Source of the DNA: an uncultured Candidatus Actinomarina sp.
GTDB lineage: Bacteria; Actinomycetota; Acidimicrobiia; Actinomarinales; Actinomarinaceae
Length of the DNA: 64,000 nt
Direction: 5' to 3'
NCBI GenBank assembly: GCA_902555055.1
Contig: CACDQN010000002.1
Coordinates: 64,094 to 128,093, forward strand
The translations under genes were made by a program, and so were the position numbers. The stretch's first letter is position 1. Each line of letters opens with the position of its first letter. Below the pieces are notes generated by a model. That model saw only the letters and a program-made list of their open reading frames with translations. It was not told the origin of the DNA and did not search any database. Positions 9,807 to 51,493 of the stretch are shown here, one piece after another.

Positions 9807-11084
9807 ATGAGTCAAATAGTGACAATGCCACAGCTTGGCGAAACAGTAACAGAAGGCACAATTCTTCGTTGGCTAGTTAAGGTCGGAGACGAAGTTAAGG
9901 AAGATGATCCAATATTGGAAATCTCTACTGACAAAGTTGATACAGAAGTACCCTCACCATTTAACGGAACAGTCAGTAATTTACTAGTAGAAGAAGGTGA
10001 AACTGTAGAAGTAGGAGCTTCTCTTCTTGAATTGGATGGAGATAAAACAAAAACAAATGACACCCCTCTTAAAGAAGAGCCAAAAGAAGATAATATTCAA
10101 GATCCAAATCCTGATGTTGACGAGGTACAAAATCCTAATATTGTAAAGACACCTAAGGAGAAACAAAATCTTCAATTATCACCAGTTGTCAGAAAACTTG
10201 CCTCTGAACACAATATAGATCTTGAAAAAGTTCAGGGCACTGGTAAAAACGGAAGGATTAAAAGACAAGATATTGAAAAAATTATTTCATCAGGTCAGGG
10301 TGTAATCTCAACAGAAAAGATTGATGAACAGCTCCCACAGGAAAAAGAGAAAGCAACATTAACTAAAGAGTCTTCAAATAGCATTTCAAGACTTAGGAAA
10401 AGAATTGCTGAAAACATGGTTATGTCAAAGCAAACTTCTGCACATGTGATGACTTCTATTGAGGTAGATTTTGAGAATATTGAAATTGTAAGAGCAAAAC
10501 ATAAAGCAAAATTTAAGGAAGAAAATGGCTTTTCACTAACTTATCTTCCTTTTATCTCTCTTGCTACAATTTCGGCATTGAGGGAGTACTCCGTAGTAAA
10601 TAGTTCTTTTGATTTAGAAAATGGTATTCACGAAATTCATAATCATATCAACCTAGGAATTGCTGTTGACTTAAATCAAGAGGGATTATTGGTTGGAACC
10701 CTGCAAGAGGCTGATTCGTTTAATTTAAAAGGAATAGCCAGAAAGATTTCTGAGACTTCCAAATTATTAAGAGATGGAAAATATGGTTTAGATGATGTAA
10801 GTGGAAGTACTTTTACTGTATCTAACAATGGTTCATTTAATTCATTTTTAACATCCCCAATAATTAATCAACCAAATGTTGCAATCCTTTCAACAGAATC
10901 AGTTAAGAAACGACCAGTTGTTGTTCAAGCACAAGATGGATCCGATTCTATAGCAATAAGACACACTGGTATTTTGAGTATTACATGGGACCATAGGGTA
11001 TTTGATGGTTCTGTAGCGTTATTATTTCTTAATTTTATTAAGGAAAGGTTAGAGAATACTGACTGGTCACAGGAATTAGATTGA
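9807..11084 (+). CDS. Dihydrolipoamide acyltransferase (E2)
   Basis: 425 aa. Lipoyl domain with EISTDKVDTEVPSP, E3-binding domain SPVVRKLASEHNIDL, catalytic DHRVFDG. Confidence 0.9.
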   Translation: MSQIVTMPQLGETVTEGTILRWLVKVGDEVKEDDPILEISTDKVDTEVPSPFNGTVSNLLVEEGETVEVGASLLELDGDKTKTNDTPLKEEPKEDNIQDPNPDVDEVQNPNIVKTPKEKQNLQLSPVVRKLASEHNIDLEKVQGTGKNGRIKRQDIEKIISSGQGVISTEKIDEQLPQEKEKATLTKESSNSISRLRKRIAENMVMSKQTSAHVMTSIEVDFENIEIVRAKHKAKFKEENGFSLTYLPFISLATISALREYSVVNSSFDLENGIHEIHNHINLGIAVDLNQEGLLVGTLQEADSFNLKGIARKISETSKLLRDGKYGLDDVSGSTFTVSNNGSFNSFLTSPIINQPNVAILSTESVKKRPVVVQAQDGSDSIAIRHTGILSITWDHRVFDGSVALLFLNFIKERLENTDWSQELD

Positions 11085-12709
11085 GAAATCTTAATATTCG
11101 TTGGCTTGGAAAATTACCTTATTCGGAAGCTTACGACCTTCAGTTAGGAATTCATAGATCAGTTTCACAAAATAATAGTAATGATGATTATTTATTGCTT
11201 CTTGAGCATGATGGGGTTATAACTTCAGGACGTTCTGCAAACAAGAATAATTTACTAGTTTCTGAAGAAGAGCTAAATAATAGAGGAATAGATTTTTTTG
11301 AAACTGATAGGGGAGGAGACATTACCTATCATGGTGAAGGTCAATTAATTGGTTATCCAATCGTTAGACTTTCTGATCCAAAAAAAATACTGCCCTTTGT
11401 GAGGTCATTAGAAAATGTAATCATTGATACTCTAAATGAATTTTCTATAGATTCTTTTACTAAAGAAGACGATACAGGTGTTTGGACCTCTGTTGGCAAA
11501 ATTGCTTCGATTGGAATTAAGGTTAGTAAATGGACTACTTATCATGGTTTTTCATTAAATATTTTTGACAATCTTGAAGGTTTTAATTTGATAAACCCAT
11601 GCGGTAATGAATCTGAACAAATGAGTTCCATTCATCAATTTAATAATCAAATTTCTTTTGAAGATGTATCAAGTGTAATTTCTAAAAATTTTGAGAATAT
11701 TTTCAATTATGAAAAAATAGATAAACAGTTTTCTCAATTTACTCCTAAACAATTGAAGACAACTAAAGAATTCAATATTGATGAAATGGTTAAAAGGGGA
11801 GTGTTTAAACCCAATAAAAATATTATTCCAATAACAATTAAGGGAGTCTTGCCAAATGAACCTAAAAGGCCTGAATGGATGAAGGTTAAAGCAAACTTAG
11901 GAAATGATTACATCAATTTGAAAAACTTATTAAGCGAGAAAAAATTAAATACAGTATGTGAAGAAGCTTCGTGCCCAAATATATATGAATGCTGGTCAAT
12001 GGGAACTGCAACATTTATGATAATGGGTGATGTTTGCACACGAGCTTGTGGCTTCTGTGATGTTAAAACTGGTAAGCCGGGTCAACTTGATTTAGATGAA
12101 CCAAGCAGGGTTGCAGAAAGTGTAAAAGCTATGCAGTTGTCACATGCTGTTATTACTTCCGTTAATAGAGATGACCTTGATGATGGAGGGTCATTGTTTT
12201 TTGCAGATACAATTCGCGCTGTAAAAGAATTAAATGAAAAATGTAATGTTGAAGTCTTGGTTCCAGATTTTAAAGGATTGAGGTCAGCAATAGACAATAT
12301 TCTTTTTGCTGCTCCTGAGGTATTTAATCATAATTTAGAAACTGTACCGAGACTACAAAGGGAAATAAGAACCGCGGCGTCTTATGGAAGGTCATTGTCT
12401 CTTCTCGAATATGTCAAGCAGCAAGGGTTTATGGGGAAAACAAAAACCGGATTAATTGTTGGAATGGGTGAAACTAAAGATGAAGTTATCTCAGTTTTGA
12501 AAGACCTATCTAAAATCGATATTGATATTGTTACTATAGGTCAATATTTAAGACCAACAGCAAAACATAGACCAATTGATAGATACGCACCAATTGAAGA
12601 ATTTGAAGATTATAAATTACTTGGTGAGTCATTCGGCATACCACATGTTGAATCCGGTCCACTAGTAAGATCTTCATATCATGCAAAAGATTCTTTTGCG
12701 TCTGCCTAG
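11081..12709 (+). CDS. lipB-lipA: Bifunctional octanoyltransferase LipB / lipoyl synthase LipA (single fused ORF)
   Basis: 542 aa, TTG start overlapping the E2 stop. LipB part (aa 1 to about 212): GGDITYHGEGQLIGYP, KIASIGIKV, NPCG. LipA part (aa about 263-542): CEEASCPNIYEC, CTRACGFC, RSSYHA. No stop or frame change between the two parts. Confidence 0.9.
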   Translation: MRNLNIRWLGKLPYSEAYDLQLGIHRSVSQNNSNDDYLLLLEHDGVITSGRSANKNNLLVSEEELNNRGIDFFETDRGGDITYHGEGQLIGYPIVRLSDPKKILPFVRSLENVIIDTLNEFSIDSFTKEDDTGVWTSVGKIASIGIKVSKWTTYHGFSLNIFDNLEGFNLINPCGNESEQMSSIHQFNNQISFEDVSSVISKNFENIFNYEKIDKQFSQFTPKQLKTTKEFNIDEMVKRGVFKPNKNIIPITIKGVLPNEPKRPEWMKVKANLGNDYINLKNLLSEKKLNTVCEEASCPNIYECWSMGTATFMIMGDVCTRACGFCDVKTGKPGQLDLDEPSRVAESVKAMQLSHAVITSVNRDDLDDGGSLFFADTIRAVKELNEKCNVEVLVPDFKGLRSAIDNILFAAPEVFNHNLETVPRLQREIRTAASYGRSLSLLEYVKQQGFMGKTKTGLIVGMGETKDEVISVLKDLSKIDIDIVTIGQYLRPTAKHRPIDRYAPIEEFEDYKLLGESFGIPHVESGPLVRSSYHAKDSFASA

Positions 12710-48464: not shown

Positions 48465-49412
48465 TTAAGACGAACTATAAAGTAATTTAATTCTTTCGTA
48501 TATCGGCCAACCATTAGGAACACATCCATTAGTAGATTTTGATTGTTGCATCATTACTGGTGCAAGTGCTTTATCTGACGGACAACCACTATGTCCCCAT
48601 CCAAGGTAGTGACCTACTTCATGGTTAATTAAATAAATACGATATGTACTTAAATCAGTGCCAAAATCTTTTGCCCCTGATAGCCATCTAAACATATTAA
48701 TTACAACATTTTTTTCGTTCCTGCAAGAGTAAATTCCATTTGTCTGTAACGGATAACACAGCTCATCTACTGTTTCAGGTTTTGCAAAAACAATATTTAA
48801 ATCGGCATTCTCTGAATTAACAATTTGAAAAGACTTGGATTCTATTGTTGACCATCCTCTAGGATCATTTAATATTCCAATGACCATATTTGAAAGACAA
48901 TTCGGATCTAGATTAAGTCCTGACTCAACTTTGATTCCAATATTGTAAAAACTTTTTTTATATTCAAAAAAATTGTCAGGAAAATACCATAACCTATCAT
49001 CATTTAAAGGATTTTCTACAAGACAACCCTGAGTCATATCTACATTAGGTACTGATTTACTATTTATGATTTCTTCATTTGTTTTATAGATTGAAAATGA
49101 AGTAACCTTTATTTCCGCCCCATCACTTTCAGGTAATATACTTTTATCTTCTTCAATTTTCTGATCGGCTTCTTTTTCTTCATATTCTGAACTGACTTTA
49201 ATGTTTGGTTCATTTATAGTTTCTATTTTTTGAATTTTAGAACTTGATTCATTATCCTGGCTATCTTTTTGCATAGATACTTGGTCTTCAACTAAAACAT
49301 TTTGAGGAATTAATTGAACATATTGAAATTGAAAATTTGAAGTCCCTAAAAATATTATTCCAAAAGAAACAAGTAAAGTAGAAAATAAAGATACTACTGG
49401 ATTGATTTTCAT
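48465..49412 (-). CDS. Secreted/anchored DUF3152-like putative zinc metallopeptidase
   Basis: 315 aa with an N-terminal TM/signal segment. HEVGHYLGWGH near the C-terminus. Confidence 0.6.
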   Translation of the reverse strand: MKINPVVSLFSTLLVSFGIIFLGTSNFQFQYVQLIPQNVLVEDQVSMQKDSQDNESSSKIQKIETINEPNIKVSSEYEEKEADQKIEEDKSILPESDGAEIKVTSFSIYKTNEEIINSKSVPNVDMTQGCLVENPLNDDRLWYFPDNFFEYKKSFYNIGIKVESGLNLDPNCLSNMVIGILNDPRGWSTIESKSFQIVNSENADLNIVFAKPETVDELCYPLQTNGIYSCRNEKNVVINMFRWLSGAKDFGTDLSTYRIYLINHEVGHYLGWGHSGCPSDKALAPVMMQQSKSTNGCVPNGWPIYERIKLLYSSS

Positions 49413-49436: not shown

Positions 49437-50009
49437 TTATTGGTCAAGATTTTTTTTATAACCCTTTTCGTCTATAAAATCTTCAGGCTTCAGTCCAAGT
49501 CCATCAGCAACTCTATTTATGTAATTAAAGTATGAAATTACTTGAACTGCTTCAGAAATTTCTCTGTCATCAAGTCCTACCTTTTTTAATTTATCTATAT
49601 CTGAACTATTAATATTTCCAGGTTTTTGTGTAAGTTTTTCAGCAAAAATACATAATTCTTTTTGCTTGGAGCTGAGATCACTTTCTTTCCAATTATTAGA
49701 AATTTGATCAACTAATTTTTGGTCTTTTGTCTCCGACCGGAGATCATATAGATGAGCTCGTATTCAGTATTCACATTCATTCGATATTGATGTTACAACT
49801 GCAAGAAGTTCTCTATCAAAACGTGAAATTTTTAAGTTTCCAAACATTGTTGAGTTATATAGTCGCATTGAATCTCTCAGAATTTCAGGTGTTTGGGATT
49901 GAATTGTAAGTATATTCCAAATTCTTCCAGCTCTTCTCATACCTTTTTCATACTCTTTTTTTAGAAGACCAGTAGATTTCTCAAATTTGAATAATTTAAT
50001 AAATGCCAT
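49437..50009 (-). CDS. AhpD-like / carboxymuconolactone decarboxylase-family peroxidase-related protein, candidate selenoprotein (TGA at codon 82 read as Sec)
   Basis: The ORF-track part 49764-50009 ends ...LLAVVTSISNECEY. The same frame continues after TGA (complement of 49764-49766) as IRAHLYDLRS...ELCIFAEKLTQKP...VISYFNYINRVADGLGLKPEDF... to TAA (complement of 49437-49439). The motif NECEY-U-IRAH matches the family motif N-x-C-x-Y-C-x-x-x-H. Confidence 0.65.
49728..49766 (-). other. Candidate bacterial SECIS: UGA followed 25 nt later by the hairpin UCUCC-GGUC-GGAGA
   Basis: The complement of 49730-49743 forms a 5-bp G/C-rich stem, with a possible sixth pair if one base is bulged, and a GGUC tetraloop. 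The stretch is strikingly GC-rich against an AT-rich background. The spacing falls in the 16-37 nt range used for bacterial SECIS prediction. Confidence 0.5.
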
Positions 50010-50039: not shown

Positions 50040-50483
50040 ATGCAACTGCCAAATGAACTTAAACAAACAATCGACAATAATGCCTTCTGCGCGATAGCAA
50101 CAAAAGTTAATGAAAAAGAGCTTCAGAACCATTTGATGTGGATCGATTATGCAGATAATAAGATACTAATTAATACAGAGCAAGGAAGAAAAAAAACTGA
50201 AAATATAAGATTAGATCCTTATTTGACTGTTGTTATCTTTCACCCAAGTGAAATGTATCAAAGTTGGGAAATTAGAGGGACTGTAGAGAATATTATCCAG
50301 GATCAAAGCGCAAATGATCATATTGACTTTCTCTCAAATCGTTATTTAGGAAAGCCCTATAAAAGACCAAAGGAAGTTTCTTGGGAGCAAGCCAATATTA
50401 AATCAAGAGAAATATGGGAAGTGACCGTAGATAAAATTATTTCTATGGTTAGCAGACCTCAGGAAAAGTCAACTTCAGAATAA
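50040..50483 (+). CDS. Pyridoxamine 5'-phosphate oxidase-like (PPOX-class, possibly F420-dependent) protein
   Basis: 147 aa. Size and pattern fit a split beta-barrel flavin/deazaflavin-binding family. cofD and cofE are present in the window. Confidence 0.55.
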   Translation: MQLPNELKQTIDNNAFCAIATKVNEKELQNHLMWIDYADNKILINTEQGRKKTENIRLDPYLTVVIFHPSEMYQSWEIRGTVENIIQDQSANDHIDFLSNRYLGKPYKRPKEVSWEQANIKSREIWEVTVDKIISMVSRPQEKSTSE

Positions 50484-51155: not shown

Positions 51156-51493
51156 GGGGGTGAACTGGCTTCGACTTTGAAGCGAGTCTCTCAGTAGCGA
51201 GTCGAGGGTCCTAGGGCCTCGTTAAAAACGTAGGAAAACAATATAACTGCCAAACCTAAGTTGGCTTTAGCAGCCTAACCGCTGCTCGTCACCTATCGGG
51301 GCTCCCACCTCGGATAGTACTGGCGTCGAAATGTGGGATGCTGAGTTGGGTTACCGACTAACTCTTAAGATTTAGGTAAACCTGTTAGGTTATAGGTTCC
51401 GATGACTTGCCTAACTGTAAAACATCGGATGCGCTCGGAGAAGCTGTTTGATAGCTTGGAAGGACCGGGGTTCGACTCCCCGCACCTCCACCA
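51156..51493 (+). ncRNA. ssrA: tmRNA (SsrA)
   Basis: The 5' GGGGGUG pairs with the 3' CACCUCC, including a G3:U pair, followed by ACCA. T-arm CGGGG-UUCGACU-CCCCG. The tag frame 51234-51278 reads GAA AAC AAT ATA ACT GCC AAA CCT AAG TTG GCT TTA GCA GCC TAA, giving (A)ENNITAKPKLALAA*. The resume codon is uncertain. Confidence 0.95.

Follow-up and report, generated by a model that had tools for sequence, protein, structure and literature searches.

In the AhpD of Mycobacterium tuberculosis (the TIGR00777 type), which is reduced by lipoyl-DlaT/Lpd and in turn reduces AhpC, the second cysteine of the CxxC motif is the reactive nucleophile. A related AhpD-like protein (TIGR01926/COG2128), with the motif in the form CxxU, has been catalogued as a selenoprotein family from ocean metagenomes since 2005 (PMC1088965). 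The Sargasso Sea data contained 27 AhpD-like CxxU sequences (PMC1088965), and the GOS survey yielded 299 sequences of 'AhpD-like 1' in 37 samples (PMC2398784); the protein is listed as TIGR01926, CxxU in PMC13188914, and the family is also listed in PMC9312934. It is among the commonest marine selenoprotein families, and the initial annotation of the locus described here was right that AhpD-like selenoproteins had been predicted from marine metagenomes (PMC1088965; PMC2398784; PMC13188914). The presence of selenocysteine (Sec) machinery in Candidatus Actinomarina is reported in one preprint, in which selC, selA, selD, and a divergent selB were found in every one of the 84 Actinomarina genomes that are complete, along with about five predicted selenoproteins per genome (bioRxiv 10.64898/2026.04.03.716425). 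The initial annotation had known of no description in this lineage, a statement largely overtaken by that preprint, although the AhpD-like gene is not named there.

The present gene lies in a 64,000-nucleotide stretch of DNA from an uncultured Candidatus Actinomarina sp. (assembly GCA_902555055.1, 133-kb contig CACDQN010000002.1, positions 64,094 to 128,093), referred to here as the window. Sequence and comparative data indicate that positions 49437..50009 on the minus strand very probably form the complete gene of a 190-residue AhpD-like (TIGR01926/COG2128, CxxU) selenoprotein, with Sec inferred at UGA codon 82 (49764..49766). The reverse complement of this region reads as 81 amino acids ending in SISNECEY, a TGA (49766..49764), 108 sense codons, and a TAA (49439..49437), so that the full gene comprises 190 codons including Sec82, followed by TAA. 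The TGA at codon 82 is the single in-frame TGA of this open frame. In-frame ATG, GTG, or TTG codons occur only at positions 1, 24, 48, and 55, none of them 3' of the TGA, and the C-terminal 108 codons and stop (49437..49763, minus strand) can be translated solely through readthrough of UGA82. The joined 190-residue product and the lack of a downstream start were both as first described. Stops are expected at 7.5% of random codons given the base composition, and the probability of 108 open codons is then 2.3e-4, close to the rough figures given earlier (about 7 percent and about 1e-4). Orthologues are 186-190 amino acids long and colinear from M1 on; one of them, 97% identical, comes from the SAG AG-333-E10. 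A six-frame scan of the window recovered five TGA-interrupted open frames with at least 40 codons in both halves; the four others are antisense shadows of long genes, and the scan yielded no further credible TGA-split (selenoprotein) gene in the window.

Public records mis-annotate the gene as an 81-residue fragment. The N-terminal 81 codons with the TGA (49764..50009, minus strand) appear in the list of open reading frames and are annotated publicly as a complete protein; the exact 81-residue sequence was found on 72 contigs from independent sources in a protein collection, under the label 'alkylhydroperoxidase family enzyme'.

Assignment to the AhpD-core/carboxymuconolactone decarboxylase (CMD) family, proposed from the sequence at the outset, was borne out by profile searches with the joined protein. 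Its score with TIGR01926 (peroxidase-related, AhpD-core) was 142.7 bits, above the cutoff of 81.8, with residues 15-177 aligned to model positions 14-177 of 178 across the TGA, and it matched Pfam CMD at 45.1 bits. The M. tuberculosis-type model TIGR00777 scored 19 bits, below its cutoff of 191.95, and NF041238 (AhpD_rel_CFYUT) scored 57.4 bits, below its cutoff of 175, with a match to the C-terminal part alone of this 357-position model. Homologues of solved structure (PDB 6k40, 2oyo, 3c1l, 2pfx, and 2prr) were recovered at E = 5e-26 to 4e-19. The TGA lies over the second CxxC cysteine in the alignments to 6k40 and 2oyo (N-R-C-V-Y-C-A-V-S-H versus N-E-C-E-Y-[TGA]-I-R-A-H), the placement at the second redox Cys that had been predicted. 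The active-site motif N77-E-C79-E-Y-U82-I-R-A-H86 (49752..49781, minus strand), in which UGA82 is the second member of the redox pair C79-x-x-U82, combines with E67 (49809-49811, minus strand) to give the AhpD signature E-x11-C-x2-[C/U]-x3-H. E67, N77, and H86 are invariant in the alignments, and Y81 varies little if at all. Fold and motif are fixed by the sequence matches to solved structures.

In the mechanism that these data suggest, UGA82 would not be taken as a stop in translation. The mRNA hairpin UCUCC-GGUC-GGAGA, with its apical loop 25 nt past the UGA, would serve as a bacterial SECIS element that recruits SelB-GTP-Sec-tRNA(Sec), and Sec would be inserted. Family knowledge predicts that the product is an all-helical AhpD-core/CMD-fold oxidoreductase in which Sec82 would take the place of the second CxxC Cys of AhpD-type enzymes, and in which C79-x-x-U82 would form a selenenylsulfide/selenol-thiol pair served by an E67/H86 proton relay.

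The core of the SECIS-like hairpin (49730..49743, minus strand) has a 5-bp stem, UCUCC/GGAGA, closed by a GGUC tetraloop, and is encoded by D89-L-R-S-E93. The hairpin was confirmed where the initial annotation had placed it; the distance of 25 nt from the UGA given there holds for the apical loop, while the stem begins at 20 nt. RNAfold adds two pairs (U-A and G-C) below a bulged A, extending the hairpin to 49728..49746, and folds the 20-nt segment as ((.(((((....))))))). at -6.9 kcal/mol, compared with -6.2 kcal/mol for the core alone. This extension is a prediction in the present allele; high-GC relatives have a regular helix of 7-8 bp as the lower stem, and in them the 60 nt after the UGA, including the equivalent hairpin, typically fold at -13 to -25 kcal/mol. 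Under the bSECIS model (PMC13188914), the upper stem has 4-16 bp and carries an apical loop of 3-9 nt whose first two positions include a G (usually as G[G/U]); the loop follows the UGA at 16-37 nt, and the minimum free energy must not exceed -7.5 kcal/mol. The present hairpin agrees with it in loop (4 nt), stem (5 bp, or 7 with the bulge), G position, and spacing, 25 nt being typical of bacterial SECIS elements as had been claimed, but narrowly misses the energy limit (-6.9 versus -7.5 kcal/mol, in a genome of 32% G+C). A search with Rfam found no SECIS family in the window at the gathering threshold or in 49650-49800 at E up to 10. The Rfam SECIS models gave nothing significant in any Actinomarina genome (bioRxiv 10.64898/2026.04.03.716425), so this null result is uninformative. 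A rival local fold of the present allele, at -9.6 kcal/mol, takes up part of the 5' stem, and single-sequence folding 3' of the UGA was not significant (z = -0.36, -1.21, and -1.72 for 71, 47, and 20 nt, respectively). The argument for the hairpin therefore depends on comparison among sequences.

That comparison shows the hairpin to be conserved across phyla and covarying, the behavior proposed as its test. At the same codons in different phyla, 83.9% of cells are paired, compared with 30-50% when the 3' partner is shifted by 1-3 columns. Pair 24-37 occurs as CG in 59 sequences, UA in 16, and UG in 2, with none unpaired; pair 25-36 as CG in 72 and UA in 2; and pair 21-40 as CG in 39, UG in 19, UA in 10, and GC in 2. 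Compensatory CG-to-UA changes are thus seen in three pairs, and the observed covariation score was reached in 0 of 500 shuffles. The loop start G[G/U] is constant as well: all 77 distinct sequences have G in alignment column 29 and either G or U in column 30. Some of this conservation could be due to the conserved D-L-R-x-E peptide, but codon choice and synonymous sites argue that the peptide is not the whole explanation. The Actinomarina hairpin draws on the rarest codons (CUC, CGG, UCG): in the window, CUC accounts for 4.7% of Leu codons, CGG for 1.4% of Arg, UCG for 4.6% of Ser, and GAG for 23% of Glu, and the joint probability of the codons chosen in the hairpin is 5.6e-6 under this usage. 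In a set of 11 Actinomarina sequences the encoded amino acid is invariant at 97 codons, of which 83 vary synonymously at the third position, whereas codons 89 and 91-94 show no synonymous variation and the sole change at codon 90 (CUC to CUU) preserves a G-U pair. When both strands of the window, 128 kb of sequence together, were searched for G[G/U]NN tetraloops on a 5-bp stem with at least three G-C pairs, two matches were returned, the present hairpin and one inside tmRNA; only in the former is the loop preceded by a TGA at a distance of 16-37 nt.

UGA82 might instead be decoded without any Sec system, through low-level near-cognate incorporation of Trp, Cys, or Arg or as a code-4-like sense codon, to give a selenium-free product. 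UGA is the leakiest of the stop codons, and full-length database proteins show W at residue 82. Such a reading might also draw on the failure to find selA, selB, selC, selD, or tRNA-Sec in the window, in a 10-kb upstream flank, or in sequence flanking 60 related loci; the 10 kb past the left window edge contain only pyrimidine, ABC-transporter, and Suf genes. The sel genes are, however, reported for the genus (bioRxiv 10.64898/2026.04.03.716425), and the supplement to that report puts selA near 0.92, selC near 0.10, and selD near 0.08 of the chromosome. From its gene numbers (MscL #877, SecA #896, SufC #924) and a total taken as about 1,150-1,200 genes, the window falls very roughly at 0.75-0.8 of the chromosome. 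The W itself is an artefact of code-4 gene calling: the DNA behind such entries has TGA, and translation with table 11 does not give the stored protein. A genuine Trp codon was considered and rejected (the DNA of L001-L008 reads TGA), and TGG was absent from the aligned codon in all 89 homologous sequences examined. Position 82 is the catalytic Cys in the solved homologues, and the only sense alternatives found there are Cys, which is functional, and rare Arg variants. Nor does UGA behave as a sense codon in the window, where TGA terminates 13 of 54 long ORFs, among them the three that the initial annotation had cited as genuine stops; since TGA serves as a stop elsewhere, recoding at UGA82 is local. 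Finally, a conserved, covarying hairpin at SECIS distance and under selection at the nucleotide level would have no role in simple readthrough. Decoding without selenium is therefore improbable.

A second possibility, of about the same low probability, accepts Sec insertion but makes it minor or conditional, a selenium-dependent switch, with the 81-residue N-terminal peptide as the main functional product. To our knowledge, termination by RF2 competes with Sec insertion in all bacteria studied, and the hairpin of the present genome is weak, at the -6.9 kcal/mol given above. The 81-residue fragment, however, would stop just short of the catalytic residue and lack the fold's second half, and the downstream half is under strong selection. 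This alternative is moreover a question of efficiency and leaves the identity of the gene unchanged.

The remaining alternatives turn on conservation of the UGA and of the codons that follow it. A nonsense mutation (for instance from TGT/TGC or TGG to TGA) might have cut a Cys-type AhpD-like gene and left its remnant to decay; the 81-residue fragment is all that public records annotate, and some broken genes do exist in streamlined genomes. Yet in homologues of 40-97% identity from Actinomarina, Chloroflexota, Acidobacteriota, Gemmatimonadota, and Planctomycetota 88 of 89 sequences have TGA at the identical codon and one has TGC, the comparison with TGT/TGC that had been proposed as a check. 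A family survey of a genome collection covered the best 80 of at least 586 genome matches; more TGC forms at the aligned codon were found in L092-L099, and T-x-x-C forms keep the second Cys alone of the CxxC pair. The downstream part, far from decayed, contains no further stop, carries the family-invariant F-N-Y-I-N-R motif, and is under purifying selection, with a median dN/dS among Actinomarina orthologues of 0.16 over its 102 compared codons (83-184) versus 0.05 over codons 1-81. The pseudogene reading is effectively refuted by these data and is highly improbable. A sequencing or assembly error hiding the TGT/TGC of an ordinary CxxC enzyme, for which single-base errors in SAG and MAG assemblies do offer a precedent, is excluded for practical purposes and is the least probable reading of all, because the same TGA recurs across different samples, in single-cell genomes and MAGs obtained independently and in the Tara, JGI, ENA, and Logan assemblies. 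As far as sequence can tell, the comparison among homologues is the decisive evidence for the selenoprotein reading.

From family knowledge, the selenoprotein is likely to act in hydroperoxide detoxification or in the re-reduction of a peroxiredoxin-type partner, and its reductant is likely to be a dithiol, whether that of a lipoyl-E2/dihydrolipoamide system or a different one. A lipoyl-E2 gene directly precedes the AhpD-like gene in the closest relatives outside Actinomarina (Acidimicrobiia). At ten Sec-form loci the AhpD-like gene is preceded on its own strand by a lipoyl-E2 gene, and at nine of them 0-4 nt separate the E2 stop from the AhpD-like start; several Cys-form loci are arranged likewise. 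Clustering of neighboring genes over 80 loci was noisy owing to high-GC shadow ORFs, and only the E1/E2 linkage, checked by motif and Pfam, was kept from it. At the Actinomarina locus neither E2 nor a peroxiredoxin adjoins the gene, and no ahpC is nearby. We tentatively suggest, as a possibility that is itself rather doubtful, that the TIGR01926 CxxU proteins are the selenium-dependent counterpart of the mycobacterial AhpD/DlaT/Lpd system, recharged through the lipoyl group of E2, and that the Actinomarina enzyme, read by way of a minimal SECIS element, is among the few clients of selA/B/C/D. If so, in a cell with a genome of about 1.1 Mb the AhpD-like enzyme would help to justify the upkeep of selA/B/C/D, and an unusually minimal 5-bp GGUC SECIS would be read by a divergent SelB.

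The gene belongs to an already known selenoprotein family and is not a new kind, and it leaves general knowledge of selenoproteins and recoding unchanged. What it offers is a corrected annotation, from a public 81-residue 'alkylhydroperoxidase family enzyme', or a metagenome protein with a spurious Trp, to a full selenoprotein. A selenoprotein family that ranks among the most abundant of the surface ocean is now tied to a named and very abundant lineage, and the Sec machinery reported for Actinomarina gains a concrete, plausibly antioxidant client.

Among known systems, the AhpD-like selenoproteins (COG2128/YciW, TIGR01926; Zhang and Gladyshev, 2005; 2008) show no essential difference from the present one: the TIGR01926 match is above cutoff, Sec is second in the CxxU motif, the habitat is the surface ocean, a bacterial SECIS lies directly 3' of the UGA, and Cys homologues are known. 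The catalogues were, however, drawn from unbinned reads and carry no lineage, whereas the present gene is placed in Candidatus Actinomarina, and its SECIS is a minimal 5-bp GGUC hairpin within the D-L-R-S-E codons. NF041238 (Sargasso Sea 'hypothetical protein 1') is likewise an AhpD-related marine CxxU selenoprotein, yet of a different family. The closest solved structures, Deinococcus radiodurans AhpD (6k40) and the 'uncharacterized peroxidase-related proteins' 2oyo, 3c1l, 2pfx, and 2prr, are colinear over residues 16-177, and in 6k40 and 2oyo N-x-C-x-Y-C-x-x-x-H aligns residue for residue; all are Cys proteins of modest identity, and no Sec form has been solved. M. tuberculosis AhpD shares the CMD/AhpD-core fold and the E-x11-C-x2-C-x3-H signature, and possibly the lipoyl-E2 link, given the E2 gene immediately upstream in Acidimicrobiia relatives, but it is not an orthologue by the TIGR00777 score, and the present protein has Sec for its second Cys. 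The SECIS of E. coli fdhF is likewise an intragenic hairpin that closely follows the UGA (codon 140), and the MG1655 sequence bears out the statement of the initial annotation that its apical tetraloop is an identical GGUC. It differs in having its loop 18 nt downstream on a two-part helix of roughly 40 nt, as against 25 nt and a 5-bp stem (7 with the bulge extension) in Actinomarina. Where Actinomarina has GGUC on 5 bp, a 7-bp stem with the 6-nt loop CG[G/U]GNN is found in most relatives from other phyla.

The AhpD-like gene (50009..49437, minus strand) very probably encodes a selenocysteine (Sec) protein. Direct reading gives an ATG and 80 sense codons ending in T-S-I-S-N-E-C-E-Y, a TGA at codon 82 (49766..49764), 108 further sense codons and a terminal TAA (49439..49437). 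ATG, GTG or TTG occurs in this frame only at codons 1, 24, 48 and 55, so independent initiation of the part beyond the TGA is impossible; the initial annotation's description of a TGA-interrupted frame with a 108-codon continuation lacking a start was borne out when frame and start codons were re-read. At the base composition of the window (G+C 0.30-0.36), 7.5% of random codons are stops and 108 open codons have p = 2.3e-4, in keeping with the earlier estimate of about 1e-4. When all six frames of the window were scanned for open frames interrupted by TGA, this gene and four antisense shadows of long genes emerged. TGA is a genuine stop elsewhere in the window, as had been claimed: it terminates 13 of 54 long ORFs, the three sites originally named among them.

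By homology, the product is a predicted AhpD-core thiol/selenol oxidoreductase. Scored with C in place of U, the 190-aa protein reached 142.7 bits against TIGR01926, "peroxidase-related enzyme" (cutoff 81.8; residues 15-177, on both sides of the TGA), and 45.1 bits against Pfam CMD (cutoff 23; residues 41-91), which supports the proposed colinearity with the AhpD-core/CMD family. Membership in the M. tuberculosis-type AhpD family (TIGR00777; 19 bits, cutoff 191.95) and in the AhpD_rel_CFYUT selenoprotein family (NF041238; 57.4 bits, cutoff 175) was rejected on scores below cutoff. The nearest solved structure is D. radiodurans AhpD (6k40, E = 4.8e-26), and the other nearest structures (2oyo, 3c1l, 2pfx and 2prr) are "uncharacterized peroxidase-related proteins". 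The alignments with 6k40 and 2oyo place N-R-C-V-Y-C-A-V-S-H over N-E-C-E-Y-[UGA]-I-R-A-H, so that UGA82 falls on the second CxxC cysteine, the position to which it had been assigned from the sequence. The residues spaced as E67-x11-C79-x2-U82-x3-H86, which we take to be the AhpD-core catalytic signature, are invariant or nearly so in alignments.

Dozens of orthologues in the protein collection (186-190 aa, 72-97% identity) all carry "W" at residue 82; among full-length entries, "W" stands at the Sec codon in P0001-P0036, P0056 and P0059-P0064. A true Trp residue is ruled out as a gene-calling artefact, since the DNA of all three entries sampled (P0001, P0004 and P0059) has TGA and none of the entries yields its stored protein when translated with table 11; this indicates that the gene caller used a code-4 model on short contigs. 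Selenoproteins in the collection can thus pass as Trp proteins. Proteins of the window match, exactly or nearly so, proteins named as Candidatus Actinomarina sp., and the best genome match for the gene is the Candidatus Actinomarina single-cell genome AG-333-E10 (97% identity). Scanning a single genome for each GTDB species gave 586 confirmed relatives, and the best 80 of the 586, which were kept, came from Actinomarina and other Acidimicrobiia, Gaiellaceae, Acidobacteriota, Chloroflexota, Latescibacterota, Gemmatimonadota, Planctomycetota, Calditrichaceae and Neomarinimicrobiota. Across the window and homologous loci L001-L088, the codon aligned with UGA82 is TGA in 88/89 and TGC in 1/89, the outcome of the orthologue comparison originally proposed. 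All of L001-L008 have TGA at codon 82, including a 67% G+C homologue of only 44% identity. Among nine Actinomarina sequences, codons 1-81 had a median pairwise dN/dS of 0.05 and codons 83-184 one of 0.16, the latter value indicating that the part past the TGA is maintained as protein. A sequencing error at the TGA is ruled out by its conservation in homologues together with purifying dN/dS downstream, and a pseudogene by the 88/89 conservation and the downstream value of 0.16.

The SECIS-like hairpin UCUCC-GGUC-GGAGA (49743..49730, minus strand) had been placed 25 nt after the UGA; this holds for the apical loop, but the stem begins at 20 nt. The bacterial SECIS model (PMC13188914) asks for a loop of 3-9 nt, an upper stem of 4-16 bp, G in the first two loop positions, a UGA-to-loop spacing of 16-37 nt and a free energy of -7.5 kcal/mol or lower. 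The hairpin has 4 nt, 5 bp, GG and 25 nt, all within these ranges, but at -6.9 kcal/mol it narrowly misses the energy threshold. The GGUC loop is shared with the E. coli fdhF SECIS, as had been stated: the MG1655 sequence shows ...GCA-GGUC-UGC..., although there the loop lies 18 nt past the UGA (codon 140) rather than 25 nt. An Rfam search found no model matching the hairpin, and single-sequence folding of the region gave no significance. In this allele a competing fold overlaps the 5' stem: within 49720-49766 (minus strand), GAGCUCAU...AUGAUCUC can form a stem of -9.6 kcal/mol that ties up part of the 5' arm of the SECIS. This allele shares the competing stem with relatives of 97% identity, but other Actinomarina species do not conserve it.

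Evidence for selection on the hairpin comes from comparison. It occurs in every lineage, in the codons for D-L-R-x-E(-V), GAC CUC CGG NNN GAG GUC, and in the majority of lineages it has a 7-bp stem with a CG[G/U]GNN loop. Where x is Ser (UCG), in Actinomarina and three high-GC genomes, an extra C-G pair closes the GGUC tetraloop; in Actinomarina, Thr ACA in place of Val GUC abolishes the lower stem. In a gap-free alignment of 77 distinct sequences, 83.9% of cells were paired in this helix, against 30-50% when the 3' partner was slid by 1-3 columns, and 0/500 shuffles reached the covariation score. Pair 24-37 was CG in 59, UA in 16 and UG in 2, with none unpaired; pair 25-36 was CG in 72 and UA in 2 (Leu CUC/Glu GAG to Phe UUC/Glu GAA); and pair 21-40 was CG in 39, UG in 19, UA in 10 and GC in 2. 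The 5-bp Actinomarina stem uses the genome's rarest codons (CUC, 4.7% of Leu; CGG, 1.4% of Arg; UCG, 4.6% of Ser), and for this peptide such a combination of codons has a joint probability of 5.6e-6. Among 11 Actinomarina sequences, synonymous variation is seen in 83/97 invariant-amino-acid codons but in none of codons 89 and 91-94, and the sole change in codon 90 (CUC to CUU) preserves a G-U pair. A 5-bp stem (at least 3 G-C pairs) with a G[G/U]NN loop matched only once more on both strands of the window, inside tmRNA. Within the 40 nt that follow the TGA in an H-G-E-D-[L/F]-R subgroup (L066 and L078, partly L047 and L053), the usual 3' arm is absent (GAA ACA or GAA ACG); CUCCG pairs instead with an upstream CGGAG, giving a hairpin about 10 nt nearer the UGA, which may be an alternative SECIS register in this family.

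Four assemblies carry Arg at the position aligned with 49764-49766 (CGA in L100:601-1164, AGA in L101-L103, which are independent copies of one protein). These codons are exactly one substitution from UGA and all four loci retain the full GACCUCCGGGCNGAGGUC hairpin. They resemble recent replacements of Sec by Arg, a change expected to abolish CxxU chemistry. The Cys forms nearest to this subfamily (L037, L092-L099) read N-S-T-R-Y-C, the first motif Cys being Thr and only the Sec-equivalent position being retained. Their Arg codon can be AGG and their Leu is Tyr or Phe. Some of them have a weakened hairpin (-4.6 to -5.2 kcal/mol), but others do not (-9.8 kcal/mol).

Neither tRNA-Sec nor any sel gene turned up in the window, in the 10 kb adjoining it on the left or in the regions flanking 60 related loci. 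A preprint, "Actinomarina, resolved" (bioRxiv 10.64898/2026.04.03.716425), reports selC, selA, selD and a divergent selB in 84/84 complete Actinomarina genomes, with about five predicted selenoproteins per genome and no selenouridine synthase; an AhpD-like or peroxidase-related selenoprotein is absent from its text and tables.

The gene is flanked by a divergent PNPOx-like gene (50040-50483) and, 24 nt downstream, a DUF3152 metalloprotease-like gene (48465-49412), with tmRNA (51156-51493, plus strand; tag AKPKLALAA) about 1.1 kb upstream. The order tmRNA, 214-aa ORF, PNPOx-like, AhpD-like, DUF3152 appears conserved across Actinomarina; tmRNA lies at the same offset in 9/9 genome loci (L009-L017), flanking ORFs having been examined in some metagenome contigs only. 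In ten Sec-form loci of Acidimicrobiia-type MAGs (L020, L021, L025-L029, L033, L034 and L036), a lipoyl-E2 gene (Biotin_lipoyl, E3_binding and 2-oxoacid_dh) lies upstream on the same strand, the AhpD-like start falling 0-4 nt past its stop in nine and 336 nt past it in L029. Several Cys-form loci (L037, L093 and two JGI places of P0046) share this order, and in Acidimicrobiia-type relatives the E1-alpha and E1-beta genes are found farther upstream. This adjacency is reminiscent of M. tuberculosis, whose AhpD has lipoyl-DlaT/Lpd as its reductant, and suggests by analogy a lipoyl-dependent redox partnership. It is absent at the Actinomarina locus, so the reductant is a matter of inference. About 38 kb away, still within the window, there is an E3-E1-E2-LipB/LipA cluster; its 542-aa ORF (11081-12709, plus strand), with LipB/LplA-type catalytic and lipoyl synthase radical-SAM domains in the Pfam list of an identical contig, appears to be a LipB-LipA fusion immediately following the E3-E1-E2 genes.

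The initial annotation's finding is correct and well argued, and the family itself is already known. AhpD-like selenoproteins had, as it stated, been predicted from marine metagenomes: "AhpD-like protein" (COG2128, CxxU) was among the new selenoprotein families described from the Sargasso Sea, where it had 27 sequences (PMC1088965), and as "AhpD-like 1" it ranks fourth in abundance among prokaryotic selenoprotein families in GOS, where 37 samples yielded 299 selenoprotein sequences, compared with 902 Cys homologues (PMC2398784). Only the explicit assignment of the gene to Actinomarina and the anatomy of its minimal SECIS are not already in print. Reviews list AhpD-like protein as TIGR01926 with CxxU (PMC13188914; PMC9312934), and the window gene falls within this family by every sequence-level test of membership.
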